A DNA stretch of 60,096 nucleotides. Origin: a virus (taxonomy: Duplodnaviria > Caudoviricetes). The notes under the pieces are model-generated. The model made no database searches. It worked only from the letters and a program-made list of their open reading frames with translations, and was not told the DNA's origin. Where the stretch lies: the IMG/VR virus record IMGVR_UViG_3300047548_000544, positions 1 to 60,096 of that record. The stretch is one strand, 5' to 3'. This document shows, one piece after another, positions 1,568 through 59,205 of the stretch. The translations under genes were made by a program, and so were the position numbers. How positions within the stretch are numbered: position 1 is the stretch's first letter; every line of letters begins with the position of its first letter.

Positions 1568-2047
1568 TTAAGTGTCTTTAGAGAGTTCTTCTGCGATTTG
1601 TTTGTCCATTTCTTCATTAAAACGCTTATATCTTAAAGGTTCTGTGTCTTTTTTCAACTTAACAATGAATTTATCTAGCTCATCTAGTCCATAAGCTCTA
1701 ATTACGAGTTGAAACCTAAAGTACTTTTCTTCTGCAAATACACTTTCAACTGGCTGTCCATCTGCTTGAAAGCATCCACCATACAAAGCATCTCTATTAA
1801 CTACAGGGTTCACTATAATCTCTTGAAGTTGAGCAAACTTAGAAACATAAATATATGCTTCTTCTTTACAGATACATTCAAAAGTAGATGTAACTACACC
1901 CTTAATATAATTAGTGGGCTGAGTAAAACTCATACTTGTACGCTCTTGATAATCATGTTGTTCATGATAACCGCTAACATTAATACCTATATAATTTAGA
2001 TAATCAGTTAAAGCTTGTGCGCCCATCTGTATGTGTTCCCTTTTCAT
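1568..2047 (-). CDS. Hypothetical protein
   Basis: 159-aa ORF translationally coupled (TAATG) to the dUTPase gene. Confidence 0.7.
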   Translation of the reverse strand: MKREHIQMGAQALTDYLNYIGINVSGYHEQHDYQERTSMSFTQPTNYIKGVVTSTFECICKEEAYIYVSKFAQLQEIIVNPVVNRDALYGGCFQADGQPVESVFAEEKYFRFQLVIRAYGLDELDKFIVKLKKDTEPLRYKRFNEEMDKQIAEELSKDT

Positions 2048-2484: not shown

Positions 2485-3005
2485 AAAGTATCTCCATTTC
2501 TATATTTTACTAATCTTAATAGCCATTCTTCAAACTCTAAATCAGTTAAATTACTTTTTGCCATATTACAAATAGAGCAACATGATCTAGTATTAGTTAG
2601 AGAATATCCTTTACTAGAATCAATTCTATCTACCCCATTGGCATAAGCTGTAAATTTTCTTGTTCTTAATTGTGGTTCAATACCACAGTAATAGCAATTA
2701 CCTTGTGTTAAATTTTTAAATTCTTCAAAAGATAATTCAAATGTATGATCTCTATCTCTTGCTCCAGCTTTATAATCTGTAAATAATGTCTTTAACAAAG
2801 ATTCTTTTATGTCTTTTGTTTTTCTAGCACAACCACAAGAAACTATTTGACCAGTCTTAACTCTAGATGCTTCATGTATACTTTTATTACCACAAGAACA
2901 TTGAAAATACCATTTCACAGCACCAGTTTTACTTCTTTCTTTTACTTCAGAAAGTGCAATCAGTTTACCAAATTTTTTATTAGTTATATCAAGTTTCAGT
3001 CCCAC
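2481..3005 (-). CDS. HNH homing endonuclease
   Basis: N-terminal KKFGKL..WYFQCSCG..SCGC module, then CYYCG..NGVDRIDSSKGYSLTN..CCSICNMAK. Confidence 0.85.
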   Translation of the reverse strand: MGLKLDITNKKFGKLIALSEVKERSKTGAVKWYFQCSCGNKSIHEASRVKTGQIVSCGCARKTKDIKESLLKTLFTDYKAGARDRDHTFELSFEEFKNLTQGNCYYCGIEPQLRTRKFTAYANGVDRIDSSKGYSLTNTRSCCSICNMAKSNLTDLEFEEWLLRLVKYRNGDTL

Positions 3006-3450
3006 TATCTTCCTCTTTTTTATAGTCAGTAAAAATTATTCCGAAAAGATGATCTATCTCATGTTGAATAACAACAGCAGTTAAATCAGTAAACTCTTTC
3101 TCATTATACGTTTTATTTTTATCTTGCCATCTTACTTTAATTGTTTTAGCTCTAGTGTTAGTATTGTGGGTAACACCTTTCACAGAGAGACAACCTTCAG
3201 GGAAGGGTAAAGTTTCGGAGTTAGATTCTAAGATTTCAGGATTAAACATAATCCCAGAAAATTCTAGAGTATTAATACAAATAATTCGTAAACTTTTTCC
3301 GACCTGGTTCGCAGCGAGACCGACTGCTTTATGAGCATTCATAGTAGTTAACATACTCATTGCAAATGCTGTATGTTTAGAGGGTTCTTCCACTCTATTA
3401 CATACTCTTCTTAATGATGGGTGCTTGTCGTTTAAAATTTTTAGAATCAT
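2989..3450 (-). CDS. def: Peptide deformylase
   Basis: All three PDF motifs are present: GLAANQVG, EGCLSV, QHEIDHL. Confidence 0.96.
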   Translation of the reverse strand: MILKILNDKHPSLRRVCNRVEEPSKHTAFAMSMLTTMNAHKAVGLAANQVGKSLRIICINTLEFSGIMFNPEILESNSETLPFPEGCLSVKGVTHNTNTRAKTIKVRWQDKNKTYNEKEFTDLTAVVIQHEIDHLFGIIFTDYKKEEDSGTET

Positions 3451-3823: not shown

Positions 3824-4258
3824 TTAAAGATCCTTATCGGAAATACTTACATCTGCAGGTTTAACTCCAGGTTTCTTCCTAAAGTCCCATCTAGCTTTAT
3901 ACCCTCTAGAGTCAATGTGAGTAAAAGTATCATATCTTCCTAAGCCATCAAAGCTTTCACAAGCATCTTGAACTTCTAAAGGAGTCATTCCTTTCACAAC
4001 GATATCCGTCGCATGACCTTTCATGTGCATAGAGTTCTTTTCTCCACCAACTGCAGCATTGTGAGCTGGACATCTGTAAGCAGAGTTAATAGTAATTGAG
4101 GCACCTAGGTCTTCACGTAATTTCTGTAGTTTAGCAACGTGATCTAGATTGATTAGAGTTTCTGGGCATTGACCGCATGAGCATTCAAACTCTGCGACTA
4201 AGAAGTTAGCTGAAAGTTTAGTTTTATCGCCACGGGGGAACTTTTTAATGTTAGCCAT
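3824..4258 (-). CDS. Peptidase M15A (D-Ala-D-Ala carboxypeptidase-type) endolysin
   Basis: LSANF..EFECSCG, SAYRCPAHNAAVGG..SMHMKGHATDI, FTHIDSRG (H/D/H Zn ligands). SD AGGAG and an upstream TGATATAAT at 4278-4286. Confidence 0.9.
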   Translation of the reverse strand: MANIKKFPRGDKTKLSANFLVAEFECSCGQCPETLINLDHVAKLQKLREDLGASITINSAYRCPAHNAAVGGEKNSMHMKGHATDIVVKGMTPLEVQDACESFDGLGRYDTFTHIDSRGYKARWDFRKKPGVKPADVSISDKDL

Positions 4259-4335
4259 AAGTATCTCCTATGGCTATATTATATCAAAGATTTAGGTTTC
4301 AAGTTAATAAGAGATCTATAGAGGAGGTGATTTGA

Positions 4336-4386
4336 ATGATTTATTTAGTATTGTTGATTGTAATTTTATATTTAGTTCGTAAGTAG
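4336..4386 (+). CDS. 16-aa hydrophobic peptide MIYLVLLIVILYLVRK (type I toxin-like)
   Basis: Very strong SD GAGGAGGTGA at 4321-4330. Uninterrupted hydrophobic run followed by RK. TAG stop. Converges on the tRNA 3' end. Confidence 0.6.
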   Translation: MIYLVLLIVILYLVRK

Positions 4387-4395
4387 TTGAAAAGA

Positions 4396-4472
4396 TGGTG
4401 CTCCATGAGGGATTCGAACCCTCTATGGCAGGTTTAGAAGCTGCTGTCTATAACCAATTAGACGTATGGAGC
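4396..4472 (-). tRNA. tRNA with CUA-centred anticodon loop (putative amber suppressor; alternative reading Arg-UCU)
   Basis: 77-nt cloverleaf: GCTCCAT AC GTCT AATTGGTTAT AGAC A GCAGC TTCTAAA CCTGC CATA GAGGG TTCGAAT CCCTC ATGGAGC A CCA. Acceptor, D and T stems are perfect and CCA is encoded. There is a C31-C39 mismatch, and A replaces U at position 8. Confidence 0.9.
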
Positions 4473-4483
4473 ATATCTTTATT

Positions 4484-4783
4484 TTACAACAATCTGAAAT
4501 CTTTAAAGTACTCAGAGCAATCTGGACCATAGGCTGCAAAAGCTGTAAGTTGACTTCCAATATCGGGTTCATAAAAAGAAGCAATATTTATATCAGCAAG
4601 GGGGAAGGTCTTTTGTGCCATCGTCAACATTTCAAAATTTGTTTTAAGATACACAATTGTATGATTGCCCCACTCTTGAGCTAGATCTGGATAACTCAAC
4701 ATAAAGGCAGCTAGGGCGTGACCGCCCTGAACTGCTTGTTGACTCTTAGATAGATCATCTCTTATTAAGATATACATTTTCAT
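4484..4783 (-). CDS. Peptidyl-tRNA hydrolase Pth2-like protein
   Basis: KMYILIRDDL..QAVQGGHA, IVYLK and FYEPDIGSQLTAFA follow the PTH2-family pattern in about 100 aa. The canonical GK reads SQ and DAGxT reads EPD..T. Confidence 0.8.
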   Translation of the reverse strand: MKMYILIRDDLSKSQQAVQGGHALAAFMLSYPDLAQEWGNHTIVYLKTNFEMLTMAQKTFPLADINIASFYEPDIGSQLTAFAAYGPDCSEYFKDFRLL

Positions 4784-5061
4784 TATATACCTTCAGCTAC
4801 AAGATTTGCAACAGTTGTTAAGATCTGATCCATCTTGTATTCAGATATCTTATTACAATCGTGGACTTTACCTTCTATTTGTTCATAAGTACGACCGCGA
4901 GCCATACAGTAAGCTATATGCTTATATCTGTATTCCAGTTGAGCCCAATGTAAACCATGTACGTAACCGGAGTTAGCTGCACAGCGTGAGGCTTTCATTG
5001 CTCTGATTTCAGATGCTTCTTGTTTTAATTCTTTCTTAAGTTCTAGTAATTTTTCGTTCAT
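4783..5061 (-). CDS. Unknown 92-aa protein translationally coupled to the Pth2-like gene
   Basis: The true start is probably ATG at 5061 (SD GGAG), not 5097. Motif YRYKHIAYCMARGRTYEQIE. TAATG overlap with the Pth2-like gene. Confidence 0.8.
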   Translation of the reverse strand: MNEKLLELKKELKQEASEIRAMKASRCAANSGYVHGLHWAQLEYRYKHIAYCMARGRTYEQIEGKVHDCNKISEYKMDQILTTVANLVAEGI

Positions 5062-5067
5062 TTGATA

Positions 5068-5114
5068 TTCTCCATAATAATTGTTTTGCGAAAGCATAAT
5101 TGAATTATGGTGAA
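5068..5114 (-). promoter_or_regulatory. Putative translational attenuator hairpin sequestering the SD of the 5061 gene
   Basis: mRNA TTC-A-CCATAAT-TC-AATT-A-TGC-TTTC-GCA-AAAC-AATT-ATTATGG-A-GAA. The pairings TTC/GAA, CCATAAT/ATTATGG, AATT/AATT and TGC/GCA cover the GGAG. Confidence 0.6.
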
Positions 5115-5115
5115 T

Positions 5116-5142
5116 TTATGGTGGCTTAGTCATCTATCTCAT
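5116..5142 (-). CDS. Leader minigene M-R-(TAG)-M-T-K-P-P-TAA
   Basis: SD AAGGAG (5148-5153) lies 5 nt before ATG AGA TAG ATG ACT AAG CCA CCA TAA. Confidence 0.65.
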
Positions 5143-5168
5143 AAGATCTCCTTTGGTTGATTGAATAT

Positions 5169-5177
5169 ATTATACCA
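5169..5177 (-). promoter_or_regulatory. Extended -10 promoter TGGTATAAT for the leader/Pth2/tRNA operon
   Basis: Overlaps the helicase stop codon and lies about 25 nt upstream of the leader ATG. The same motif occurs in most intergenic regions. Confidence 0.7.
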
Positions 5178-6552
5178 CGTCAACGTCTTTGGTTATGTCT
5201 AAGTACCAGTCTATTCTACTCTTTGCATGTCTTGTAAGCATAGTAGATCCCTGAGGAATATAGTCTATAATAATAGCATGAGTTTTAGTTCCCTGTTTTC
5301 TAAGTGCTCTTCCTAAAGATTGAACAACTATTCCTTTAGATCCTGGGAAATGAGCCATAATAAGAACATCTACATTCTTCGTATCACATCCTTCCCCGAT
5401 CTTACCACCAGTACCTATCAGACCGGTTATAGAACCTGCATTAAGCTGATCTACATAAGATTGTGACTGTTTGTCAGTGCCTTGTGCGAAAGGTAATCCT
5501 AACAGTTTAGAGAGCTCCTCTCCATGAACAACTTCTCCAACCAAACAAAGCACAGATTTACCAGCAGCAATGTAAGTTTGAATGTCTGCGACGATTTGTG
5601 CTTTCATAGCAGTGTCGTTTAGAACATGTTCTTTATATGCTTTCATTTTGTCGTTCTTATAATCGGTGCCTGAAGTCGCTACACTCTTCACTATAAATTT
5701 AGGTTGAGCTAAAAATCCATTAGCTATTCCCCATTTAATATCTCTTCTTAATAAAACATCCCCACATCCAGCATTGATCATAATGTCTTTGCCATCAGAT
5801 CTATAGTCAGTCGCTGTGAGTCCGTAAATTCTTCCAACATCTCCAAGGGCAACAGCAATATCAAAAAACGTATTTGCAGCAATATGATGTACTTCGTCGA
5901 AGATGATACAACCCAAATCTGCCTTAGCAAACTCTTCTGTCGCTTTAATAACACTAGCAGCAATACCTACAGTGATGTTCTTAATCTTCTTCTTGCCACC
6001 ACCGTAGAAGCCAACTTGATCTTCACCAAAGGCTTCACACAGTTCTTTATAGAATTGTTTAGCAATAGAATCAGAAGGAACTATGATAAGAGTTTTTCTT
6101 TTTAACTCTTTAATTAAATAGAGTGCAGTAAGCGTCTTACCCATTCCTGTAGCGAAGTTAACAACTCCTCTCCAGTTAGCAGAACATAAGTCTACAGCTT
6201 CTTGTTGATAAGGTCTTAGAGCAAAAGGTTTCTTTTTCCAAGGATAAGTTGTCTTAGAACCTGTATCTATTCTTTTATCTTCTATCTCTATATCTTTTAT
6301 ATTATTAAGTAAATAGGCTAAACCAGAATTAAAGGCAACATGTTTACCCATGGGTTTTAATAGATTGCCTTGAGCTTCTTTTTGTAACTTCTTATAGTAA
6401 CCTGAATTCTTTTGAAATGGGTTATGATCCATGCGACGCAATTGATATTTGATAGCTTTATCTTCATAACTTAACAGATCATTTAACGATTGTATAACGA
6501 TCGGTGTAGGATTTTGAACGATTGTAAATTTATTAGTTATGATTGCTCGCAT
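5170..6552 (-). CDS. Superfamily 2 DEXH helicase (UvsW-like)
   Basis: LRPYQQEA, ATGMGKT, DEVHH, GLTAT, GEGCD and QSLGRALR motifs. Confidence 0.93.
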   Translation of the reverse strand: MRAIITNKFTIVQNPTPIVIQSLNDLLSYEDKAIKYQLRRMDHNPFQKNSGYYKKLQKEAQGNLLKPMGKHVAFNSGLAYLLNNIKDIEIEDKRIDTGSKTTYPWKKKPFALRPYQQEAVDLCSANWRGVVNFATGMGKTLTALYLIKELKRKTLIIVPSDSIAKQFYKELCEAFGEDQVGFYGGGKKKIKNITVGIAASVIKATEEFAKADLGCIIFDEVHHIAANTFFDIAVALGDVGRIYGLTATDYRSDGKDIMINAGCGDVLLRRDIKWGIANGFLAQPKFIVKSVATSGTDYKNDKMKAYKEHVLNDTAMKAQIVADIQTYIAAGKSVLCLVGEVVHGEELSKLLGLPFAQGTDKQSQSYVDQLNAGSITGLIGTGGKIGEGCDTKNVDVLIMAHFPGSKGIVVQSLGRALRKQGTKTHAIIIDYIPQGSTMLTRHAKSRIDWYLDITKDVDVV

Positions 6553-12901: not shown

Positions 12902-15900
12902 TTACTTAATTTTTGTAATTTTAACTTGTGCAAATTTTTCATTCTCACCACCACCTACTGCCGTCCCTAAACCATTAGTAGCTACTGCTGCTCCAACGTA
13001 ATACTGAAGAGATATTGTTTTAGCTGAAGTTAAAGTTATTTCAGTTCTTAACAATGGAACACATGAGGTAGTAGTATTTGCATAGTGAGAATCACTAACA
13101 TCGAAAGTTGTAGAATCTGTAATGTTTCTCAATCTTAATTTACTAGTAGTAGTGCTGAAAAATGGAGCAGAAGCTTCTATAGAATAAACTCCAGCAGATA
13201 ATACAAATTGATTGGAAGCTAAGCTTGTTACAATGCCAGTATTATCTACAATTGTATTTAACTCTCTATTTGTCCAAGTCGCAGCAATACTTGCACCACC
13301 GTTTGTTGCGGTAGCCTTAACATCACTCAAGTAAGCCACTCGCATTTGCAAATTCGGCACAGTAGTTAACACTGGAGCTTTTGAAGCTGAAAATGCTACG
13401 TAACCATTTGTCTGAACAGTAGCATCTGAAAATTGAAGAGTGTGAGTAGTATTTGAAGCAGGATAAAGAACCAGACCAGCATCAATTTGTAAGATACCAG
13501 TAGTAGGATTATAATCCTTTATAGCTAATCCGTATGCATCTAGCTTACCATCGGCTTGTGAATAATCCAACATACCAGAATTTACTTTACTTGTAGATTT
13601 AAACAATCCTAAGTTTACAGACTGTAATCCTTTACCAATAAATATATCAACTCTACTTGGAGAAGCTGAAGTAGAAGTAGCGTTACCTGCTCTAGCAAAA
13701 ACTTGAATACCGTTTATATTCATACTAGAAGTAGTTTGAGTTGGAGCACTCGCTGCTATTGTTGCAGTATTCCCACCACTAGCGTAAGTGTAAGTATTAA
13801 ACGTCCCAATAGCGTCTGTAGCAGGGTCTATTGCAGTAGCTTTAAAAGCGAAAGACATTGTGTCTGAGGATACTTGCTGAGTTGGTGAAGCTGTGGCGTT
13901 GTTGTCTGCTGTTGCTGCGAGTGTTACACCACTAAAAGTAACAGTTGCACCACTCTTTTGAATTCTAAGGGTATCCCCAGCTACTAACTTAATGTTTGCA
14001 GAGATATCAGTATTTGTGGTTCCTGTTTGGTTTGTACCACTTCTTATTTGTCCATCTGGAGCAGTACTAGTAAGTATTGTTGCATTTCTTGTTATGTAAA
14101 CAGATGCAGATGTTGTAGCTACGGCTGAAAATGCTGTGCTAATTTTAACTTCGCAATCTTTTAAAGCAACAAAACTTGTACCATTTGCAGCGGAACTATC
14201 TACACGAATTACACCAAGATTTGTATTCTTCGTAATGCTTAAAACTGGAACACCTGTATTTGTTGATCCGAAAGTTGAAGTGGCAGTTAATGCTTCGATA
14301 GCTTCAGTATCAGTAGTTTTCATGTTAACAAAACTTGTAACATCTACGCTGCTGAGATTTGGCTTGCCGACTTTTGAGATTTGAAAATTAGAAAATTTAT
14401 TTTGTGTAGATGTCATTCCCTCAGAGTGAGGACGTATTACATCGCCTTTTAATAAGTAATTCGACCAAGCACAATTAGCAATTGTTCCAACTGGAACCAA
14501 TTGGTTAGCCAACATTTCTGGAGCAGTTAAGGAAGTTATATTAACAGACAGTGAGCTAGCATTTTTAGATATACCAAATGTCCCACCACCCGAATCAGCA
14601 ATGTCGGTATAAGTAATGCTATAAAGTCCGTCTTCGTTTATTGTAAAGCTTGCACCATTAGTAGCACTATCCACATAAGTAATAGCAGTTCCAATATTAT
14701 TAAAAGTATTGCTGAACCTTCTAATTTTAGTTCCAGTCGATCCGTATCCATTCGCTGTATTTAATTGAATCGCTGAATCACTCTGCGACCATTGCGGTAA
14801 CACATTTGAAAAGTTAGCAGGGATGCTGGTTTCTGTGAGTGAGAGTGTGATCATGTTTCCAACGTTAGCACTTGGAGCAGATTCAGCAGTTACTCTAATT
14901 GCATCTCCAACATTTACGTCAAAAGTGCTAGATGCGTGAGGTCTGGCAGCGATACCAATATATGAACTTGCCATTATTTCAGAAGCTACTGCACTGATAG
15001 CAGTTTTTGTTTGTTGGTTTTTTGTAATCTGAATACTAGAACCTGCACCAGATGGGATCAAATTAGTACTTACACTCAACTTCCCAGCTTTCAGCATCGT
15101 AATTACAGTACCGTTGGCAGCAGTATTTACAACACTCCAAGCATCACCCTGAGTAATTGCTTGCGTATCGAACTTTACAATAGCTGTATCTGTGCTACCG
15201 CGAGAACTTGCACCTTCAAAACGTAACTGGTGAGTTGGGATTGTTATTTTAGAATCTGTGGAGAAGTTGAGTTGTTTTAAAGCTCCATTGTAAGAGAAGC
15301 TGATACTTGTTGCATACCCAGCACTTATTCCAGTTGCGTTTACATTGTGTAATCTTAAAGTATCTCCGGTATTTAATTTACCAGACCAAGATATAACTGC
15401 AATGTCAGAGTTTGTTGATAACATCAATCTTTCAGATGCATTAGATAAGCTGTTATAAGCAGTGGTTAATTGAGTAGTATTTTTAGATAATCCAATTACT
15501 CCAGCAGCGGAGATAAAATCTCCAGACAAGTTAAACTTAAACTCTCCATCTCTTAGAGCTATAAACTTGTCACCGTTTACGCTATCAGAAACATACTGAA
15601 TAGCATCTCCAACGTTCGATACAATTGTATTCGAAGTGAGATACATAATTTGAGTGGCTGTAGAAGCTAAAGAAGCACCAAAACCATTCATCTGCAAGTA
15701 ACTATCAGGAGTCTGCACCAACTGAGCAGAAGTTAAATCGATTGTTTTGCTTTCTGTAGCAGTAAGTGGATTTACAAAGTCAACACCTTGTTTTGTAACG
15801 TGAATATTAAACGGAGCACTTACAGCAGACCCTCTTGGTACGGTGTCGTACAAAGTTATACTTACAGAACTTGCCGACTGAGCAGTAATTACTGGAGCAG

Positions 15901-17035
15901 TAGAAGCTGTAGATGCAATTGTTACGTTTATCGCAGGAGTTACTGAGAAATATCCCGAAACAAATGTAATTACATAGTTTCCAGCAGAAGGATTTGTTAT
16001 TGACTGAATAAAGTTAGCAGTAGTTGAAAGTAAAACACCAGCAGATGAAATATCAGCAGCATCTGTATTTAATACGGCTTTCGGAACGGTAACACTTGCA
16101 GTAGTTTTTGCAACTTCAGTAAGCTTTATACTGATATCGTCAAAATAAGATTCCGGTGAACCTGTTTCAGCTAATGCAGAAATTGTGTATGAAATACTTG
16201 CACAGTTATTTGGAATATCAAAAGTGAAAGCTTGTCTTGCTGGTAAGGCAGAAATCTTAGCTGTAATTGTAGCAGAAGCAGAAGCGCTCTGTGACATTGT
16301 AGCAGTAGACGTACTGATAGCTGAGATAATCGTTCCAGTAGGGATACCAGCACCTGTAATGGTCTGTCCTACTTTAAGTTTGTTAATGTCAGTGGTAGAA
16401 ATTGCAGACAACGTAGCTGAAGCTGAAGTTGTTGTTGCAGTAATTGTTGTTGAGCCTAAAGTAATAGCTTGAGAAGCTGCTAAGTTAGCTGCATTCGTTT
16501 CGTCGTAAATTAAAATTGTAACGTTACCCTGAGTAGCACTTGAACGTGTGTAAATACTGAGAGTATTATTCTTACCTCTAAATTCTGGGTCAACTGCTAA
16601 AACTTTTTTAAAGCTTTGAGTAACACCTGCGGAAATTAACTGTGCAGATTTTAAACCGCGAATAGGGTTAGCTGTAGAAATTGCAAGACCAGTTTGCGTG
16701 AAATCAGTTGTAAGTGCATAGTCGAAATTCTGACGTAATAGGATAGAATCTTCCAAAGATTGGGTTTTGTTTATCCATTTAGAAGTAGAAGTATCATATA
16801 CTATGTATTGTTCATTTATAGGAGAAGTTAAGGTAACATCTGTAAGTGATGATAGAGTAGTTGTTCCTCCAGATCCTATTTCAACCCAAGTTGAAGATAT
16901 TGTTGAATATTTTTTTAGTTTGTTGCTATCATTGATATCAATTGCTAACTCACCTTCTTGTGGCGAAGTTAGAGTTGTTAAATCTACTGGTTTAAGTACG
17001 ATTGATTTATCAATCTTAAAAGATTTTTTAGACAT
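12902..17035 (-). CDS. Large tail fibre / receptor-binding protein with tandem beta-sandwich repeats
   Basis: 1377 aa, S/T/A-rich. Four approximately 150-aa repeats (…SDSVNGDKFIALRDGEF, …TAANGTVITMLKAGKL, …SATNGASFTINEDGLY, …SAANGTSFVALKDCEV) and a C1q-like C-terminus. Confidence 0.8.
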   Translation of the reverse strand: MSKKSFKIDKSIVLKPVDLTTLTSPQEGELAIDINDSNKLKKYSTISSTWVEIGSGGTTTLSSLTDVTLTSPINEQYIVYDTSTSKWINKTQSLEDSILLRQNFDYALTTDFTQTGLAISTANPIRGLKSAQLISAGVTQSFKKVLAVDPEFRGKNNTLSIYTRSSATQGNVTILIYDETNAANLAASQAITLGSTTITATTTSASATLSAISTTDINKLKVGQTITGAGIPTGTIISAISTSTATMSQSASASATITAKISALPARQAFTFDIPNNCASISYTISALAETGSPESYFDDISIKLTEVAKTTASVTVPKAVLNTDAADISSAGVLLSTTANFIQSITNPSAGNYVITFVSGYFSVTPAINVTIASTASTAPVITAQSASSVSITLYDTVPRGSAVSAPFNIHVTKQGVDFVNPLTATESKTIDLTSAQLVQTPDSYLQMNGFGASLASTATQIMYLTSNTIVSNVGDAIQYVSDSVNGDKFIALRDGEFKFNLSGDFISAAGVIGLSKNTTQLTTAYNSLSNASERLMLSTNSDIAVISWSGKLNTGDTLRLHNVNATGISAGYATSISFSYNGALKQLNFSTDSKITIPTHQLRFEGASSRGSTDTAIVKFDTQAITQGDAWSVVNTAANGTVITMLKAGKLSVSTNLIPSGAGSSIQITKNQQTKTAISAVASEIMASSYIGIAARPHASSTFDVNVGDAIRVTAESAPSANVGNMITLSLTETSIPANFSNVLPQWSQSDSAIQLNTANGYGSTGTKIRRFSNTFNNIGTAITYVDSATNGASFTINEDGLYSITYTDIADSGGGTFGISKNASSLSVNITSLTAPEMLANQLVPVGTIANCAWSNYLLKGDVIRPHSEGMTSTQNKFSNFQISKVGKPNLSSVDVTSFVNMKTTDTEAIEALTATSTFGSTNTGVPVLSITKNTNLGVIRVDSSAANGTSFVALKDCEVKISTAFSAVATTSASVYITRNATILTSTAPDGQIRSGTNQTGTTNTDISANIKLVAGDTLRIQKSGATVTFSGVTLAATADNNATASPTQQVSSDTMSFAFKATAIDPATDAIGTFNTYTYASGGNTATIAASAPTQTTSSMNINGIQVFARAGNATSTSASPSRVDIFIGKGLQSVNLGLFKSTSKVNSGMLDYSQADGKLDAYGLAIKDYNPTTGILQIDAGLVLYPASNTTHTLQFSDATVQTNGYVAFSASKAPVLTTVPNLQMRVAYLSDVKATATNGGASIAATWTNRELNTIVDNTGIVTSLASNQFVLSAGVYSIEASAPFFSTTTSKLRLRNITDSTTFDVSDSHYANTTTSCVPLLRTEITLTSAKTISLQYYVGAAVATNGLGTAVGGGENEKFAQVKITKIK

Positions 17036-27448: not shown

Positions 27449-30400
27449 TTATGCTATTGAGATATCACTATTTTCAATAAACGCTTTTTCATTACTAGAA
27501 ACAGGAATTCTTTCTTCAGATGGAACTGGAGTAATAAACGTTACTGCGGCAACACCATCGATGTTCTTAACTCTTACAATGATATCAGAAAGGATAACAT
27601 CTTGACCAACACCTAAGCTATCAACATAGTTAATGATCGCAGAAGTAATCTCATCGCTGATCTCACTTAAGTTAACACCATCTTGAGTTGTAACATCAAT
27701 CGCTACTTCAACTCTTCTTGGTAGAGGAGGAAGAACTTCAATTAAGCTACCAACAGCTTTTCTACCTGGGAAGTTAACTGCATCTGGTTCGAAACCATCA
27801 ATGATATGTTGAACTTTACGAAGTAGACCAGTGTAGTACAAGTACCCATCGACACCAGTAACAACATCTTTATTATAGTTCATTTTACCTAGAGCTTTAA
27901 TAGAAGAGACGTTTGACTGTCCCCACTTGTAAGCTCTGTTACCTGGACTTAAGTAGATGATACGTCTATTAGGATTAAACTCATCGATTGCGATGTGGTG
28001 AATCTGCTTAATAGTTGTGAATCTGTTTTCAAAGTCTTCAGTTATAGAGAATTTAGTGTTTGCAACACCTTGGATAACATTTGTCTCAGCAATACCGTTA
28101 GCGTTCTTAACTCTCAAGAATACTTTACCATCAGATGCATTAGTTCCCCAAGCATCGATAGTGAATGTTCCAGAGTTAACAACTTCAAACCAGTTAGCAT
28201 TTGTGCTTTCAGTAATGAAGATAATATCATTAGTCTTAACAGAGTCACCTTCGTAAAACTTGATATCTGCTTCATTTTCTAAGTACATACCTGTACCAAT
28301 TGCAGAGTTCTGATCTAGAGAGATACCTTCAGAAACTGAAGTTACACCATCATAGTTTCCACCAAGAGTTACGATTGTGGCTGCACTAGCTGCAGCGTTT
28401 AAAGCTATAACTTGTCTATACTTAGTATCATCATCTGTTAACTTCTTAACCCATGTTCCAACCGCAAGATTAGAGAATGAACCAGCTGCACCAGTGATCT
28501 GGTCAGAGTTAGATATCCAAGTAACTGGAATCTGGAAGTTATTGAAAGCAACAAGAGTATTAAGCTCTTCTTGAGCATTAGAATTCTTGTAGATAACTGA
28601 AGTATCATCAACACCAAGAACAATAAATTCTCCTGAGTTGATAGCGCCAAAAGTTGTACCACTTATAGAAAGAACGTCATCAACAGCAACACCACATGAT
28701 TTAAACAGAGGACTATCTCCATCATATACTGAAAGCCTATTCAATCCGTTATATCCAAGAGCTTCGATCTTATATCTAGTTCTTGTATTTCCAGTTTTAA
28801 GTAAGAATCCAGCTGGTTGTAGTCCAACAGAGTTGGCGGCAGCAGTTGCATATGTAAATTGATTTAATCCTAAGACTGCAATTACAGTACCAGTTCCAGA
28901 ACCAGGCACACTTGGTGCTGCTCCAGTAATAATATCAATAACAGAGAATGTATCTCCAACATTAAGCTTATGTGGTCCATTAGTTGTTGCTGTAGCTACG
29001 TTAGAAGTTACAGACACAGAAGTAATCTCTACTCTTGAAGAGTGACCTAGTTTCCACTCAATTATAGGAGTAGAAGATATTAAGATTTGAGATGCAGCGC
29101 TGATTGCAGTAGATGCCATTGCTATACCACTTGGGTTAACAACATCAAACCACTTAGAAGCAGCATTTACTTTTACGATTGGATATCCACCAACGATAGA
29201 ATCACCAGCATTAAGAGATTTATTAGAGTTAGACCATCCAGTTAAAGTTCCAATTGGATTAACAAGGTTACCTTCTCTAACAGAGGCTAAACTAGCAGCA
29301 GGGCTAATATCAGTGTTGAAATCACTTGCAATACCAAAAGTCAATAGAGCAGAAACGATCTTGCCCATGATCATGTTTGGAGTATCAGTACTTAAGATAT
29401 TTATCTCAACTTTATTAGTGGCAGATAAGTATGTAGCTCCAGATGGTAATGTGCCAGCATTGTTGATATCAAAGTTGATAGCATATGTATCACCAGCAGA
29501 GTTTCTGAAAGTAATATAATCAGCTTGAACTGGTTGACCAATCATTGTAATTCTAAAAGACAATGGAGTAGAAACCGTACCAGGATTAATTACACTGATA
29601 ACTGTATTAGTAGCTGAACCCAAAGAACCAGCAGCATTGTATGCACCAGGTTGAGCACCAACTGTACCAACAGCAACATCAGTTAAAGAAACAGAACTTC
29701 CACCATCAGAGTGAGTCCATCTCCAAACGATTCCTGGAGTTGGATAACTTGTAGGATCTATTCCGTTAGCATCAGCAATAGTGATATTAACATATTGATC
29801 AAAGTTAGTTGCCTTAGCGTTGTATCTGTACTCAAATGTATTATCATTGATTTTCACTACGTTCATACTATCTGTCCCAATCTGACGATTGAGTCTTTCG
29901 ACACCGTGCTCGTTTTCTAGAACAACGTGTTGTCCTGGAGAAAGAGTGTTAGGAGAAGCAGGAATCTTTACTTCTAGATAGTTATCTCCACCATCAGTGC
30001 TGATTTGTGCATCGCCAATCAATTTGAAAGAAGCATCATTAGCTCTACCGCCGACAATCTCGATAGCTCCGTTAGATCCAAGAAGTTGAGACTTCAATTG
30101 GATTTTCTTTCCAGAGTTAGAGATATCAACATCAGAAACAATATCTAATTGAGATAGAGCTCTCTGAGTAAGTTGGTGCTCAATGTTATCAATAGTAATT
30201 GGAACAAGTTTAAACTTCTCACCAACAGAACCATCAACGTTAGTTGTTGTATCCATTGCATAAGCGGGTGAAGCTCCACTTAATAAAAGAGGAATCTTTA
30301 ATTGGAAGTTAGGGTTAGGGTTTTGGAAAGTTAATACATAACTTATAGAGTCATATAAACCAACATCTTCATTAAGTCCACTTCCAGGGTTTGGATTGTG

Positions 30401-33400
30401 TCCGTAAGCAAGTTGATCTACAACTACTGAATTCTCTTCTCTTGTGGCTTTATTAAATGTACCAGCAGTAACTACTACAGCTTCAAGAATCTCTCCTTCA
30501 TTGATTTTAGCAACGATAGCACTTGTAGCAGTGCCAGTTAATGGGTAGGCATAGATATTAGAAACAATGTTAACTGTTTCGAAAATATCGGCAATACCAG
30601 GAGTAATTAGGGTGAAAGTAAAACCAGGAGTTGGCGATCCGTTGAATCCTTGTGCACTTGGTCCATTGTCAGTATTTGTTACAGTAATTAAACTTAATGT
30701 ACCACCGCCATTAGTTGCGGTAGCAAAAGCAGGATCGTTTAAGATTGCAGCTGCAGTAAGTGTTGCCATGTTAACAGCAGAAGCACCTGTTGCAGGATTG
30801 ATTTCCCAAGATCTTGTTGTGAGTCCAATTGCTGGCTCAATAGTTCCACCGTTGTTCATGTCATACCAGAACTTAACTGTATCTCCGTTTGGAGCGTTAA
30901 GAACGAAGTACGTTCCGTCTTTGTTGTTGGCAACATCGGCAGTACATTGAACTGAATGAATAGCTGGGTTACCAACGATAGTTGCAACTCCATTTGGATT
31001 GTAAATATCGATGGTTCTATTGACATCACTCTTTGCGTTAATTCTAAATGTTCCAGAGTTAGCAGCAGAGAAACCAGAAGCTTCTAAGATAGTGATTGTA
31101 TCACCAACGTTGATGTTGTTTACTGTGGCAGTAACTGGGAATGTAATTCTATAGTTATAACCACCTAAGCTAGTTACAGTGAATTGATCACCTGGAGCGA
31201 TATTAGTAATAACAGCTGGACCAGAACCAAATGTATAAGTAACAAGAGTTTCATTGGCAGAGTTAGTGTGAGATATAGTACTTGCTAGGTTTACAGAACC
31301 AGGATAGTCTATATTGAATCTTACTTTATCACCAATTGGTCCGTATTCTTTAGCTCTTAGAACGATACTTGCACCGTTAGATACGTAGTAGTTTCTAGCT
31401 TTAAACCAAACAGCATAATCATTGAAGTTAGCATTAGATTGAGTAGGTAAAGTTCCCCATACGCTCAATGTCCCAAAATCTATTCCTACTTCATTATCTG
31501 CATCATTAGCAGAGAAGGCATAATTCGTTGGGTTGAAAATTGACATCTGAGAACCAGTATTGATTTGACCAGTTCTAGAGAATGAAATATCGATTGTCTT
31601 AGCAACTGCATCATTGTCAATAATAGCAACTAAGCTATCTTCAGCTGAGAACTCAAGATTCTTAACAACTTGATATTCATCAGAGACATTGTAATCCATA
31701 AGAGTTCTAGGAATCGCATTACGTGTTCCTACGTTGTTATTGTCAATGATTGCTTTAATTTCTCTAGTTTGTTGCTTGTTCTGTCCAGATGTAATTGCAA
31801 GAGCATCATCATAAGATAGATCAGCATTGAAGCTTGCATTAGTATCTGTAAGAGTTTCAGAGTATGTACCAGAACCATCTTTACTTGGCTCAACAGCAGA
31901 AGTTAAAGATCCTCTTGTATCCGTGTAAGTATATCTATCTAACCAAACTGTGTCGTTTTCTGGAGCTGTTCTTTTGAACATAGTGAAAACGTCAGAGTCT
32001 TCTACTTTGTTAGCAATATGAGAAGTAGTTCCAGTCTTCTGGATTCCACCTGTTTCAAATAATTGAGTAGACGCACTACCTACAGCAACTGGCACAGCGA
32101 TTGATCCACCCTCTTCAGTTATTGATGTCATCTTAATGAAGTTAGTTCTAAATACGGAAGCCGAAGCACCGCGAATATTATCAATGATAGAGTTAACAAC
32201 ACTTTGAATAGAAGCAGCAGCTGGATTGGCAGTCATAGTGCCTTTCCAAAGTTGAGGATATTTATCAGAATAGAATGCTTGCACATCTAAACTATCTTGT
32301 ACAGAGTAAGGTCCACCAACAACCATATCGACGTTTACAACTTCAATATAAGTATCAGTTCCATCAGTTGTGTGTTCACCTTTAGAAGTTACTTTGAATA
32401 GACCACATGATTTGATGTCTACCCAATTACCAGTACCAGAGTTGTCGATATCTCCACGATTAGTAATATAAACATAATCGTTAGGTTGAATTTCTCTAAG
32501 AGCACTAGCACTAGATGCCATAACTCTCATAATGTTAGAACCTTGATTAGAGATAGTAATTGTAGAACCAACAGCAAGGTTGATCGTTCTAGGATCTACT
32601 CTTGTTGCATCTACTACTATAACCATTTCAGAAGGTCTATTGTTCCCGTCAGTTGATAAGTTAAAATTACCACCAGAAGCAGAACCAGAGACAACATTTC
32701 CTTTAGTATCAGAAGAACCAGCAGAGATTACATCTCCAGCAGCAGTAGCTTCTTGAAGTTGGATGTTACCATTTTGTCTATTTAATGCGAAGTCAGAATC
32801 TTGTCCGATAGATGAAAGTTCAGCTCCGCCGAACATCTTTTCTAGATAAGTACCACCAGCAATTTCAATTGCAGAAGCAGAACCTTCTCTGTTAGAAGTA
32901 AGGATAAGTCTTCCTGTTGTAGAAGCTGTAGCTGTAATACCAGCAAATTTATTATTGAAAGCTGTTACCCAATCAGTGATGTTAATTGCATTGAAGTTCT
33001 TTCCACCGAAGTCAGAAACATCAAAACTTCTATCTTGATCAGGTGTTCCATCAACAGAGATGATAATGTTTCCAGTAGAAACAATATTCCAAGTTGAGAA
33101 TGGGTTAGAAATTACAGCAGCAGACTTTTGAACTTCTCTAAGTCTTACATTATTCTTGTAAAGAGCGATATAAGAGAATTCGTTCACTGGGAACTTGAAT
33201 TGAGTGTTAGCATCCAATAGACTGCTGTCAGAAACTACTTGAATAGTCTCGGCTTTATAGTCAACAGGATATATTAGGATCCTTGTTGAGTCAGCTGTTA
33301 GTCTTGCTTTGAAAAGTATTGCTTTATCATTGATAGCAACAACCACTTCAGAAATAGTAGCAGTACTAAGACTTCTAAAATCTTCTGCAGAGAATACAAC

Positions 33401-34582
33401 CGCTTCTTCAACGTCATCAACAAGCACTTTGAATTCCATTCCGTCCAATAGTAAGAAAGGAGCTTCAGCATTGTTTACCACCTGTGGTCTAGGAAGAGGA
33501 TAGTTTGCAAGTTGTAGAAACTCTTCGTTTCCACTAGCACTTGCCACTAGTAAGTCAACTGATTGACCAGAATAAGAAGGTTCAAATCCATTCCCATCAT
33601 CAACGTAGACGATAGAAGGTTGACCAATCTCAGCTGGTTCTGTAATTACGGCAGATGCTACCTGTTTCCCTTCTGTCTCATCAGAAACGCCGTCTATTGA
33701 TGCCAAGATCGATCTCTTAGTTCCTCTCGCTAATGTAGAAGAATATGCTTTGATTCTGTTTCTAAACACATCATCAGATTCAGTATCGTTACCGTTAGTG
33801 AATGAATTAGTGTTAGTAATCAACGCTCCATTGAATGGAGGAGTATTAAAGATTGTGATTGTATTGATACCGGCATTACCAGCAGAACCAGCATTAATAG
33901 CTGTAACTGGAACTTGAGTAACTGTATCTTCACCAGCTGGGATTACAGCATCTCTTAAAGTTAAATACTTAACTTCAGGTGAAATATTGTTAGCGGCGAT
34001 CTTAACAGTTGTTCCCGCAGAAACTAAACGATCGCTTGTTCCTTGACCATCAACAACTAGATCAGAAAGAAGATGATCTTTTTCTAAAGCAGAAGTAAGT
34101 TGAATAGTAAAGAATGTTCCATTGTTTACAATAGAAGTATAAGCTAGTGGACCTTCGAAGTTAGGAGTTCCTCTTCCAAGATAAAGTGTACCAGTTTGAG
34201 ACCATTCAGATGCATCGTTAACATATAGTAAAGAAGTACCAACGATTGGAGCTGGCTTTACTGGATATAGTGTTGTACTTCTTTTAGTGATAGTACTGTC
34301 TGTAATTTTTACGAAACCAGAAGCTTTAACTGCAGTTCTTCTTACTAGTCCATAGTTAGAAGCGTAGGCATCAAGGTCATTATTTCTAAGAGCATCAATG
34401 TTTAATAGTTCAAGAACGTTTAGGATAGCAGTGTTATTTTCAAAGTCGTTAGCTGCAGCAGCTTCTAACAATGTTAGGATAACAGAACCTTTGTTCAAGT
34501 CGTTAGCTGGAGTATCAGCGATGATCTTACGAATCATAGCTCCTAAGATTTCATTATAGCTATTGATATTGATGTTTGCCAT
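27449..34582 (-). CDS. Giant baseplate J-like (gp6) wedge protein
   Basis: N-terminal LDAYASNYGLVRRTAVKASG..AINAGSAGN..ESDDVFRNRI..ARGT. C-terminal AIINYVDSLGVGQDVILSDIIVRVKNIDGV. About 1900 aa lie between the two. Confidence 0.85.
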   Translation of the reverse strand: MANININSYNEILGAMIRKIIADTPANDLNKGSVILTLLEAAAANDFENNTAILNVLELLNIDALRNNDLDAYASNYGLVRRTAVKASGFVKITDSTITKRSTTLYPVKPAPIVGTSLLYVNDASEWSQTGTLYLGRGTPNFEGPLAYTSIVNNGTFFTIQLTSALEKDHLLSDLVVDGQGTSDRLVSAGTTVKIAANNISPEVKYLTLRDAVIPAGEDTVTQVPVTAINAGSAGNAGINTITIFNTPPFNGALITNTNSFTNGNDTESDDVFRNRIKAYSSTLARGTKRSILASIDGVSDETEGKQVASAVITEPAEIGQPSIVYVDDGNGFEPSYSGQSVDLLVASASGNEEFLQLANYPLPRPQVVNNAEAPFLLLDGMEFKVLVDDVEEAVVFSAEDFRSLSTATISEVVVAINDKAILFKARLTADSTRILIYPVDYKAETIQVVSDSSLLDANTQFKFPVNEFSYIALYKNNVRLREVQKSAAVISNPFSTWNIVSTGNIIISVDGTPDQDRSFDVSDFGGKNFNAINITDWVTAFNNKFAGITATASTTGRLILTSNREGSASAIEIAGGTYLEKMFGGAELSSIGQDSDFALNRQNGNIQLQEATAAGDVISAGSSDTKGNVVSGSASGGNFNLSTDGNNRPSEMVIVVDATRVDPRTINLAVGSTITISNQGSNIMRVMASSASALREIQPNDYVYITNRGDIDNSGTGNWVDIKSCGLFKVTSKGEHTTDGTDTYIEVVNVDMVVGGPYSVQDSLDVQAFYSDKYPQLWKGTMTANPAAASIQSVVNSIIDNIRGASASVFRTNFIKMTSITEEGGSIAVPVAVGSASTQLFETGGIQKTGTTSHIANKVEDSDVFTMFKRTAPENDTVWLDRYTYTDTRGSLTSAVEPSKDGSGTYSETLTDTNASFNADLSYDDALAITSGQNKQQTREIKAIIDNNNVGTRNAIPRTLMDYNVSDEYQVVKNLEFSAEDSLVAIIDNDAVAKTIDISFSRTGQINTGSQMSIFNPTNYAFSANDADNEVGIDFGTLSVWGTLPTQSNANFNDYAVWFKARNYYVSNGASIVLRAKEYGPIGDKVRFNIDYPGSVNLASTISHTNSANETLVTYTFGSGPAVITNIAPGDQFTVTSLGGYNYRITFPVTATVNNINVGDTITILEASGFSAANSGTFRINAKSDVNRTIDIYNPNGVATIVGNPAIHSVQCTADVANNKDGTYFVLNAPNGDTVKFWYDMNNGGTIEPAIGLTTRSWEINPATGASAVNMATLTAAAILNDPAFATATNGGGTLSLITVTNTDNGPSAQGFNGSPTPGFTFTLITPGIADIFETVNIVSNIYAYPLTGTATSAIVAKINEGEILEAVVVTAGTFNKATREENSVVVDQLAYGHNPNPGSGLNEDVGLYDSISYVLTFQNPNPNFQLKIPLLLSGASPAYAMDTTTNVDGSVGEKFKLVPITIDNIEHQLTQRALSQLDIVSDVDISNSGKKIQLKSQLLGSNGAIEIVGGRANDASFKLIGDAQISTDGGDNYLEVKIPASPNTLSPGQHVVLENEHGVERLNRQIGTDSMNVVKINDNTFEYRYNAKATNFDQYVNITIADANGIDPTSYPTPGIVWRWTHSDGGSSVSLTDVAVGTVGAQPGAYNAAGSLGSATNTVISVINPGTVSTPLSFRITMIGQPVQADYITFRNSAGDTYAINFDINNAGTLPSGATYLSATNKVEINILSTDTPNMIMGKIVSALLTFGIASDFNTDISPAASLASVREGNLVNPIGTLTGWSNSNKSLNAGDSIVGGYPIVKVNAASKWFDVVNPSGIAMASTAISAASQILISSTPIIEWKLGHSSRVEITSVSVTSNVATATTNGPHKLNVGDTFSVIDIITGAAPSVPGSGTGTVIAVLGLNQFTYATAAANSVGLQPAGFLLKTGNTRTRYKIEALGYNGLNRLSVYDGDSPLFKSCGVAVDDVLSISGTTFGAINSGEFIVLGVDDTSVIYKNSNAQEELNTLVAFNNFQIPVTWISNSDQITGAAGSFSNLAVGTWVKKLTDDDTKYRQVIALNAAASAATIVTLGGNYDGVTSVSEGISLDQNSAIGTGMYLENEADIKFYEGDSVKTNDIIFITESTNANWFEVVNSGTFTIDAWGTNASDGKVFLRVKNANGIAETNVIQGVANTKFSITEDFENRFTTIKQIHHIAIDEFNPNRRIIYLSPGNRAYKWGQSNVSSIKALGKMNYNKDVVTGVDGYLYYTGLLRKVQHIIDGFEPDAVNFPGRKAVGSLIEVLPPLPRRVEVAIDVTTQDGVNLSEISDEITSAIINYVDSLGVGQDVILSDIIVRVKNIDGVAAVTFITPVPSEERIPVSSNEKAFIENSDISIA

Positions 34583-54866: not shown

Positions 54867-54984
54867 TAAAGGTTTTTTGAGGACTCATGCTGATAAAGCA
54901 GTTCTTGATACAGTTACTATGAATTTATATATGACATTCGTCAGAATCTTGGGTGATAAACTCGCAAAACGCCTAATCGGCTAA
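54853..54984 (+). CDS. 43-aa peptide (TTG start) with an LYMTFVRIL motif
   Basis: Manual ORF with SD GGAG. Overlaps the sigma stop codon convergently. Confidence 0.45.
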
Positions 54985-58556: not shown

Positions 58557-58815
58557 TTTATGCTCACAATATTAACTACTTAAGAACAGTTTCGTCCTCA
58601 ACTAATGCTCAACTCCGGTATTCAGAGGGTTACAGGCTTAGTGATGTATTAGATAGGTGTTAGGTATGTATATGGGATGTGGTTGAGTTTATTAGGTAAG
58701 CTATAGAAGTGTTACTAGAATGTCCTGTATTAGCTTAGGAATGATTAGTGTTTGTCTTATGAGAGTTGGAACAGACACGATAGATAGTTATAAGAAATGT
58801 GATTGTGGAGGTTTT

Positions 58816-59199: not shown

Positions 59200-59205
59200 G
59201 AGTTT

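Follow-up and report, generated by a model that had tools for sequence, protein, structure and literature searches.

Results

The window analyzed here is the whole of the IMG/VR virus record IMGVR_UViG_3300047548_000544 (Caudoviricetes), a linear sequence of 60,096 nucleotides with a GC content of 37% and an estimated completeness of 35%. On its minus strand, between positions 5177 and 4396, lies a small gene cluster composed, in the order of transcription, of a putative promoter, a Shine-Dalgarno (SD) sequence, a leader open reading frame (ORF) that contains an in-frame amber codon (TAG) and ends in two proline codons and a stop (Pro-Pro-stop), a hairpin that takes in the SD of the next gene, a gene for a 92-amino-acid protein that we call P92, a gene for a 99-amino-acid protein resembling peptidyl-tRNA hydrolase 2 (Pth2), and a tRNA with the anticodon CUA (Table 1). 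A preliminary description, made from the sequence alone, had placed the SD, the leader, the 92-amino-acid gene, the gene coupled to it by TAATG, and the tRNA 11 nt farther on along this strand, and each of them was found where it had been placed; the hairpin, given there as 5114-5068, is one base longer at either end when folded with RNAfold. From the comparisons that follow, we consider it likely that the cluster is a self-contained phage module in which the production of P92 and the Pth2-like protein depends on read-through of an amber codon by the tRNA(CUA) that the module itself encodes (amber gating).

Table 1. Positions of the module, of its neighbors in the window, and of related ORFs in two cultured phages
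Feature	Position	Strand	Basis and remarks
Promoter-like extended -10 element TGGTATAAT	5177..5169	-	Read from sequence; overlaps the TAA stop of the helicase gene
Leader Shine-Dalgarno AAGGAG	5153..5148	-	5 nt before the leader ATG
Leader ORF ATGAGATAGATGACTAAGCCACCATAA	5142..5116	-	8 positions before the stop
Leader landmarks	TAG 5136..5134; Pro-Pro 5124..5119; TAA 5118..5116	-	Sequence
SD-sequestering hairpin	5115..5067; 5' arm 5115..5104, 3' arm 5078..5067	-	RNAfold
P92 gene, 92 aa	5061..4783	-	ORF; its SD GGAG at 5073..5070
Pth2-fold protein gene, 99 aa	4783..4484	-	TAATG overlap with the P92 stop at 4783 (translational coupling)
tRNA, anticodon CUA	4472..4396	-	ARAGORN; starts 11 nt after the Pth2-like stop
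Helicase gene, ResIII/DEAD type	6552..5170	-	Pfam 4.2e-22; PHROG DNA helicase 8.7e-67; upstream neighbor, stop TAA 5172..5170
M15 peptidase gene	3824..4258	-	Pfam 3.4e-22; next after the tRNA
Peptide deformylase gene	2989..3450	-	Pfam Pep_deformylase 1.2e-38; about 1 kb downstream of the module, same strand
HD-Pth2-like ORF, RAS14 (L148)	OP752703.1 940..1800		Annotated start GTG 1015
HD-Pth2-like ORF, Xoo-sp13 (L149)	MN047793.1 937..1803		Annotated start ATG 961

Relatives of the module were collected through both of its proteins. IMG/VR held 374 confirmed Pth2-like loci, of which the best 80 (the closest) were analyzed, and alignment-based scans for P92 gave 16 loci from IMG/VR and 48 from metagenomes. 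When 147 loci were scanned with both profiles, the Pth2-like protein was found in 132, P92 in 98, and both in 84. The leader analysis covered up to 200 nt upstream of each P92 homologue, provided that no fewer than 150 nt were present there; this gave 94 loci and, after removal of redundancy, 79. Start codons and SD positions in these relatives were assigned by rule. The P92 of the window shares 29 to 60% identity with the 79 non-redundant relatives, and the flanks are no longer alignable at this distance; its closest relative, P0002 (85%), lies outside the locus set.

A strict leader was defined as an ATG frame with at least one in-frame TAG and no internal TAA or TGA, ending in CCN-CCN-stop. 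Such a leader was present in 60 of the 79 loci and was preceded by an SD in 55 of those 60, whereas the same classifier found none in the 79 reverse complements, averaged 0.01 hits per 79 loci (maximum 1) over 100 shuffles, and returned a single leader among 400 regions upstream of other ORFs in the same loci. A search in which the roles of the stop codons were swapped found leaders with an internal TAA in 0 of 79 loci, with an internal TGA in 0 of 79, and plain Pro-Pro-stop ORFs without any internal stop likewise in 0 of 79; TAA triplets exceed TAG triplets in these regions (735 versus 328), yet the internal stop is always TAG. The frame is kept from the ATG to the TAG in 64 of 73 cases and from the TAG to Pro-Pro-stop in 69 of 73. 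At the end of the leader the stop is TAA in 45, TGA in 10, and TAG in 5, and in those five the frame runs on to a further stop. Because it is conserved across relatives, and not on the strength of the window locus, this leader arrangement is more than chance as a sequence pattern.

The bases around the two landmarks of the leader are also constrained. AT or GT follows the TAG in 77 of 88 cases, and the TAG of the window sits in a suppression-friendly context of the same kind (TAG, then A or G, then T); a purine after UAG favors suppression. A lysine or arginine codon (AAA, AAG, or AGA) comes before Pro-Pro in 40 of the 60 leaders, and beyond Lys/Arg-Pro-Pro no conserved arrest peptide was found in the strict leaders. 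CCTCC is itself the anti-SD in many loci. The first proline codon is CCT in 27 leaders, CCA in 16, CCG in 10, and CCC in 7, and in the CCA and CCG loci the six bases of Pro-Pro remain for the most part unpaired (0.20-0.24); since all four proline codons are used and these bases are free, Pro-Pro appears to have been selected as coding sequence too and looks like a coding constraint. Pro-Pro before a stop has been described as a context of slow termination (PMC3985003). We infer that the amber codon serves the leader as its sensor and Pro-Pro-stop as a parking site for the ribosome.

The hairpin of the window pairs three of the four bases of the P92 SD (G, G, and G). Among 55 loci, the mean folding energy of the stretch that runs from Pro-Pro to the start of P92 is -16.4 kcal/mol; shuffling all of the sequence 5' to the SD raises it to -8.4 kcal/mol. 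The mean probability that the SD pairs with bases between Pro-Pro and 12 nt past the leader stop is 0.75, compared with 0.24 after shuffling (Wilcoxon p 3e-10), and it exceeds 0.5 in 47 of the 55. The median distance between the beginning of the helix and the leader stop, counted to its first base, is 2 nt (12 nt or less in 50 of 55), and the median distance to the last TAG is 22 nt (14 nt or more in 50 of 55); by this geometry, a ribosome released at the TAG would be out of reach of the helix, and one standing at Pro-Pro-stop would be on its 5' arm.

The tRNA of the window matches Rfam RF00005 over its full length (1-71; 48.3 bits, cut-off 29) and has its CUA anticodon in a 7-nt loop, UUCUAAA, with U33 and a purine at 37; CCA is encoded, and a C31-C39 mismatch closes the end of the anticodon stem. 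It is thus an amber suppressor by its sequence features and the predicted decoder of UAG. Near relatives from other studies carry paired, compensatory changes in the acceptor stem, so the tRNA appears to be under structural selection. Among 88 unique linked suppressor tRNAs the loop reads CTCTAAA in 60 and TTCTAAA in 13. ARAGORN found a same-strand suppressor tRNA within 2.5 kb of the Pth2-like gene in 114 of 132 loci. In the 75 non-redundant loci with any tRNA, the one nearest to the Pth2-like gene is a suppressor in 65, and suppressors make up only 72 of the 192 tRNAs there. Over 86 non-redundant loci the distance is 50 nt or less in 37, 51 to 500 nt in 16, and greater in 17, with no suppressor in the stretch in the other 16.

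Several further RNA genes were seen near the module in relatives. Two separate CUA tRNAs lie within 2 kb downstream of a single Pth2-like gene at L023/L087 and at L081. ARAGORN also called tRNAs with four-base anticodons (ttag, cttg) at L024 4863..4936 and L096 1462..1535, which may be of the frameshift type or miscalls. In Mycobacterium phage Myrna (L150, NC_011273.1), the tRNA at 1963..2034, annotated as tRNA-Ser (gene 86), is assigned the anticodon CUA by ARAGORN and stands 130 nt after the Pth2-like gp84; another annotated tRNA, at 1848..1927, was not recognized by the program, and neither P92 nor the leader was seen at this locus. Phage-encoded tmRNA genes occur within about 2 kb of the module at L090 (4036..4421), L092 (617..948), and L097 (304..630), and their proximity may bear on a role in ribosome rescue.

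The Pth2-like protein was assigned mainly through its structure. Its model has a predicted local distance difference test score (pLDDT) of 97.2, and the top 10 Foldseek matches in the PDB are all Pth2/Bit1 proteins (template-modeling score up to 0.84, TMq 0.69-0.84, E down to 7e-7); its structural neighbors include 2zv3, 1q7s, 1wn2, 3erj, and 1xty. The family profile matches 2zv3_A, a Pth2, at E 4e-6, the homologue from the Xanthomonas jumbo phage Xoo-sp13 passes the cut-off of Pfam PTH2 (PF01981; 29.5 versus 23), and some of the database relatives have a precomputed PF01981 hit. As modeled, the 99-amino-acid protein has the Pth2 alpha/beta fold, and from this fold it is a predicted esterase. 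R8, D10, Q16, Q19, G21, H22, E72, P73, T80, and A81 are invariant in the family, and K13 and D74 are present in at least 90% of its members. The catalytic residues of Pth2, which we take from the Sulfolobus enzyme to be a lysine in the N-terminal block and an aspartate in the C-terminal block, may be compared with these; the profile alignment to 2zv3 ends with E72 opposite an aspartate.

A set of 5.8 billion proteins contained 70 relatives of the Pth2-like protein, and others occur in Lak megaphages, in Stenotrophomonas and Xanthomonas jumbo phages, and in Myrna. Among 185,579 prokaryotic species, each represented by one genome, only 13 loci were found, all of them in metagenomic bins and several on contigs of 400-500 kb, so that by its distribution the family is essentially phage-borne.

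P92 is a basic, all-helical protein with the conserved core R-H-K-H-I-A-Y-C...R-G-R...E-Q-I-E. Its invariant residues are the basic K9, K13, R45, and H48, plus E63, and the basic ones suggest a nucleic-acid-binding partner, putatively one that binds RNA. The AlphaFold model consists of four helices (pLDDT 90.7); searches of Pfam, NCBIfam, PDB sequences, and the ESM Atlas gave no usable match, and a search of the PDB with the fold gave no structural neighbor (best E 2.5). With 3 hits in the initial search the protein looked like an orphan; an exhaustive profile search then recovered 2,124 representative clusters at E ≤ 0.001. A single-sequence scan of IMG/VR had likewise produced 83 pattern matches of which 0 were confirmed, and it was the alignment-based scan that succeeded. 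Five mutually diverged single-ORF fusions join the two proteins, always with P92 first and the Pth2-like part second (L091, and P0103, P0145, P0178, and P0209, the latter four among 149 representatives); as independent events of gene architecture, they show that P92 and the Pth2-like protein act together. P92 forms of at least 229 amino acids were not found, which is weak evidence, and fusions of 181-200 amino acids did appear by profile search. A complex prediction for the two proteins scored 0.00 and carries no weight either way.

Two further forms of amber gating lend support from beyond the window. In the first, the Pth2-like ORF itself begins with ATG, 0 to 3 codons, and then TAG (at codons 2-5), right before the conserved domain. 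This form was found in 16 of 86 non-redundant loci, and none of the 16 has an alternative start after the TAG. It is present in 10 of the 19 loci in which P92 gave no hit. The corresponding count for other frames of the same loci is 13 of 754. In an independent genome collection, 10 of 13 loci have the in-ORF TAG and one has the leader with P92. In the uncoupled loci L042, L073, and L082, P92 keeps its TAG...Pro-Pro-stop leader, and the Pth2-like gene, which is not adjacent, has an in-ORF TAG of its own.

The second form is found in two cultured jumbo phages, RAS14 (Stenotrophomonas) and Xoo-sp13, in which the Pth2-like sequence forms the C-terminal portion of a protein, about 285 amino acids long, with a weak HD-like N-terminal domain. 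An SD-preceded ATG-AAG-TAG in RAS14 and ATG-AAG-AAG-TAG in Xoo-sp13 lie in frame upstream of the annotated starts, the two proteins remain conserved as far as the TAG, and in RAS14 the intervening sequence offers no start codon. The annotated starts are therefore probably wrong, with the true ATG 25 codons (RAS14) and 8 codons (Xoo-sp13) upstream, ahead of the in-frame TAG. Both phages have a tRNA(CUA) in their tRNA arrays. RAS14 contained 6 candidate gated ORFs with TAG against 0 with TAA and 3 with TGA, of which only the HD-Pth2-like gene is convincing, and elsewhere in the window no amber-gated ORF was found; gating would therefore belong to the module and not to a regulon.

A possible ochre counterpart was seen in Lak-like loci (L025-L027, L033, and L036-L038), where an upstream tRNA with the anticodon UUA is followed by a leader with an internal TAA, itself followed by GT. 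This match of tRNA(UUA) with a leader TAA is suggestive only, as it comes from 2-3 independent loci in AT-rich DNA. Between the leader and the Pth2-like gene of these loci is a 127-amino-acid gene; that of L025 was tried as a P92 and rejected (hhalign probability 0.8% against the P92 profile).

In the window, the module follows a helicase gene, and the perfect extended -10 box TGGTATAAT is its putative promoter; TATAAT boxes resembling it were seen 5' of the leaders of several relatives. In a near relative (run X5, a contig of 36,095 bases), 9 bases at 5154..5164, just 5' of the leader SD, are swapped for 72 others; judging by this one relative, the promoter-proximal part is variable while the module is kept. 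A terminator scan of 4200-5400 found 0. The M15 peptidase gene has a promoter-like site of its own (4307..4278, TTAACT-18-TATAAT with TG), and the tRNA is therefore probably the end of the module's transcription unit. No DNA match to 3800-6600 of the window was found among 50,697 phage records.

Other genes of the window are mentioned for context. The phage peptide deformylase near the module is a further translation-related gene in the neighborhood. Tail-fiber and baseplate genes are present, together with very large ORFs, among them 27449..34582 (minus strand; 2,377 amino acids) and 12902..17035 (minus strand; 1,377 amino acids), the latter without a PHROG match. A sigma-70-like ORF at 54973..55671 (minus strand) has region 2-3 motifs in its translation and meets a TAG right after '...SKFGLAD', where region 4.2 would be expected; reading through this TAG adds 15 codons only. 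At 58720..59421 (plus strand), a 159-amino-acid ORF ends with TAG and is followed by 73 in-frame codons up to a TAA. It is the sole sizeable candidate for a read-through extension in the window, and an ATG 3 codons past the TAG could equally begin a separate gene.

Discussion

At the level of sequence, the comparison with relatives establishes the parts of the module, their order, reading frame, codon identity, and geometry, and their co-inheritance. On the mechanism we propose, release factor 1 (RF1) would normally terminate translation at the leader TAG, and the ribosome would leave about 22 nt short of the hairpin, so that the SD stays paired and P92 and the Pth2-like protein are off. Where tRNA(CUA) decodes the TAG, the ribosome would go on to Pro-Pro-stop and terminate slowly there; sitting on the 5' arm, it would free the SD and allow both proteins to be translated. 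As read-through would be needed to free the SD, their output would report the ratio of suppressor activity to RF1 activity. The preliminary description had read the hairpin as gated by read-through in this manner and the operon as wired for feedback, with a possible role in countering host defense, and it had proposed that the leader motif, an anti-SD hairpin, and a linked CUA tRNA be sought beside homologues; all three recurred there, with an internal stop that is invariably TAG and a hairpin placed as predicted.

A number of observations weigh against this reading. The evidence for amber gating is comparative throughout, and because the loci share common ancestry the counts measure purifying selection and not independent origins. 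Taken alone, the window locus is not compelling: the hairpin by itself has a folding energy of -10.8 kcal/mol (z -3.9; none of 200 shuffles equals it), but in a context of 121 nt the z score is -1.1 and 22 of 200 shuffles fold as well, which is modest and unremarkable. A scan for consensus promoters, which demands a -35 box, did not list the putative promoter among its 5 sites in 4200-5400 (5.1 expected). A strict leader is lacking in 19 of the 79 loci, at least 12 of which have an SD-ATG...TAG frame with Pro-Pro that is translated through the CCTCC anti-SD arm and stops 18-77 nt short of P92, and the predicted pairing of the SD is not shown by 8 of the 55 loci folded. Of the 16 loci without a suppressor tRNA in the stretch, 11 had at least 500 nt of room downstream, and a BLAST comparison of the tRNA with the other tRNAs of the loci returned only T-arm matches of 15-21 nt, which are uninformative about its identity. 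TAG ends 6 of the 61 called genes of the window, so that an active suppressor would carry a cost, and a phage gene in need of suppression was not found in the window, nor a convincing one in RAS14. The Pth2-like protein of the window itself scores under the 23-bit cut-off of PF01981 (20.1 bits, E 7.6e-4) and far under that of NCBIfam arch_pth2 (16.9 against 82), although the fold confirms the assignment made in the preliminary description. Last, any action of P92 and the Pth2-like protein on the suppressor tRNA is one that we infer from fold, charge, and circuit logic only.

The nearest alternative is a variant of the same reading, in which the leader gauges host RF1 activity or termination stress (for instance, RF1 depletion by a host defense or by the phage) and the tRNA is a constant competitor. 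Read-through depends on the ratio of tRNA to RF1, so the same architecture would respond to either, and nothing separates the two; moreover, the tRNA shares its operon with the leader and would accompany every leader transcript, with no terminator found across the region scanned. A gene for a release factor, or for a protein targeting one, was not identified beside the module, although the whole window was not screened for one. We regard this variant as improbable.

We think it very improbable that the leader is a start-stop mini-ORF, an ATG-NNN-TAG loading element at which RF1 terminates and the ribosome restarts at the next codon without involvement of tRNA(CUA). This possibility, raised in the preliminary description as reinitiation, draws on the window, where the codon after TAG is ATG, and on the position of the TAG, which is codon 3 in 44 of the 60 leaders, as in minimal start-stop elements. 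In the relatives, however, the codon after the TAG is ATG or GTG in only 4 of 88 cases, and ATT, GTT, GTA, and ATA account for 70 of the 88; a second in-frame TAG falls several codons after the first in 28 of the 60 leaders. Nor can reinitiation explain why the internal stop is TAG and never TAA or TGA. The tight linkage of a CUA tRNA, and the change of the stop to TAA where the tRNA is UUA, also speak against it.

Amber gating would also be a misreading if TAG were a sense codon throughout (code 15), with the leader an ordinary small ORF and the in-ORF TAGs ordinary codons, and Lak-type megaphages, which have Pth2-like relatives, are reported to be TAG-recoded (bioRxiv 10.1101/2021.08.26.457843). 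The window is densely coding under code 11, reading TAG as sense contributes almost nothing, and TAG serves as a normal stop at a frequency similar to that of TGA (TAA 50, TAG 6, and TGA 5 of the 61 genes); the window phage therefore does not recode TAG, despite carrying an amber suppressor. TAG is moreover position-specific both in the leaders and in the gated Pth2-like ORFs, and frames opened by TAG seldom occur in the other genes at these loci. An early TAG would leave expression dependent on the suppressor even if the phage were recoded. We thus find this explanation highly improbable.

Equally doubtful is a minigene like that of lambda bar, an analogy drawn in the preliminary description, in which a two-codon ORF would cause dipeptidyl-tRNA drop-off, the operon would supply the hydrolase, and the leader would sense the demand for it. 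The downstream gene does have a peptidyl-tRNA hydrolase fold, codon 2 of the window leader is AGA, and bar minigenes poison pth-deficient cells. Across the relatives, codon 2 takes 28 different values among 60 leaders and is AGA in two, and drop-off offers no account of the in-frame run to Pro-Pro-stop, of the exclusive use of TAG, or of the in-ORF TAG forms that have no minigene. Finally, one SD-ATG with an early stop and an AT-rich inverted repeat could arise among many intergenic regions scanned, and the hairpin is not significant in context, but a chance arrangement without function is refuted by conservation despite unalignable flanks, by the controls, and by replication in the independent collection, and its probability is practically nil.

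If production of the two proteins is gated by amber read-through, what they do with it may be considered separately. When a translation factor monitors the reaction it carries out, the purpose is usually homeostasis, as with RF2. For this reason, and because the output pairs an ester hydrolase fold with a basic partner, we favor negative feedback: P92 and the Pth2-fold esterase may, with a chance approaching even, act jointly on the ester bond of the suppressor tRNA, in its aminoacyl or peptidyl form, and so set the level of read-through. A fuller version, which we put forward tentatively, is a portable closed loop, or 'governed suppressor', with P92 as the RNA-binding specificity subunit and the Pth2-fold protein as the esterase, which together would specifically relieve the suppressor tRNA of its amino acid or peptide and fix a set point for read-through in any host. 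We hold it rather unlikely that the proteins serve in damage control, freeing peptidyl-tRNA from ribosomes that read-through has left stranded, a role close to what Iyer et al. propose for jumbo-phage PTH2. Some other role is unlikely, and a positive feedback switch is distinctly improbable.

The presence of suppressor tRNAs in many large phages that do not recode is an open puzzle. The authors describing XacN1 searched its genes for targets of the CUA tRNAs that it carries, without success (PMC5852040). The module would provide at least one conserved 'client' of such suppressors, in the form of the regulatory leader or N-terminal TAG through which a Pth2-fold protein and the widespread P92 family are controlled. 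It would be a natural sensor of nonsense suppression, a design otherwise known to us only from synthetic biology, and it would tie the peptidyl-tRNA-hydrolase fold to the control of stop-codon decoding. A governed suppressor, if true, would give the first natural example of feedback control over genetic-code ambiguity and the first Pth2 relative with specificity for a tRNA species; it could also account for the tolerance of suppressor tRNAs in standard-code phages en route to recoding. Cultured carriers (RAS14, Xoo-sp13, and possibly Myrna) make the module testable, and its compact leader, hairpin, and tRNA could be used as off-the-shelf reporters or governors in genetic code expansion.

Both PTH2 genes and suppressor tRNAs have been described in phages before. 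PTH2 was noted in jumbo phages by Iyer et al., in whose survey the word 'suppressor' is absent and the linkage to tRNA(CUA), amber gating, and P92 are not mentioned. Our literature search, confined to papers apart from their supplementary tables, returned no paper that links phage PTH2 with suppressor tRNAs or describes P92 or an amber-containing leader, and no natural leader whose input is amber decoding. The regulatory principle would be a variant of SD unmasking by leader peptides combined with sensing by an in-frame stop, and the module as a whole is without a described counterpart in the literature searched. In fold, the phage protein is the same as archaeal and eukaryotic Pth2 and is shorter, at about 95-100 amino acids against 115-120.

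The ermC and cat genes are controlled by leader-peptide attenuation through a parked ribosome. Together with secM-secA and mifM-yidC2, they have in common an SD-preceded short ORF, a hairpin over the SD, and a ribosome whose parking on the 5' arm unmasks it; the secM-secA and mifM-yidC systems have been described in this way (PMC3985003). In all four attenuators every ribosome reaches the arrest site, and stalling there depends on the signal, which may be a drug, secretion, or membrane insertion; in the phage module, the parking site would be constitutive, and amber decoding would decide whether the ribosome arrives. The module would thus work like the attenuator family without being a member in this respect, its variable step being TAG read-through and not induced arrest.

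As a gauge of termination, the module recalls prfB, the RF2 gene, in which an early in-frame UGA is read, expression rises when termination fails, and the escape is a +1 frameshift. Both would use an early in-frame stop and increase expression on failure; unlike prfB, the module stays in frame 0, its escape would be by a suppressor tRNA, and its products are not a release factor. The lambda bar minigene, a start, one codon, and a stop, is conceptually tied to peptidyl-tRNA hydrolase, and the module shares with it a very short ORF with such a tie; it differs in that codon 2 of its leader is variable and its stop is always TAG, with a frame that continues to Pro-Pro-stop.

In other phages, a 'code change module' of suppressor tRNA, aminoacyl-tRNA synthetase, and release factor has been proposed to alter the reading of stop codons in infection (bioRxiv 10.1101/2021.08.26.457843); the words 'hydrolase' and 'leader' are absent from the preprint text available to us, its supplementary tables lying outside that text. 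Unlike such a module, the window tRNA has no synthetase or release factor adjoining it, its neighbors being the helicase, P92, Pth2-like, M15 peptidase, and deformylase genes (the rest of the window was not screened), and the phage is not recoded. The closest design is synthetic: in amber leader-peptide switches for genetic code expansion, a TAG in the leader makes expression require suppression by tRNA(CUA) (PMC6412442). Those switches are man-made, work at the level of transcription (trp/tna leaders, rut site), and take an unnatural amino acid as input, whereas the phage module is natural, would act through an SD hairpin, and appears to be wired to its operon's own tRNA.

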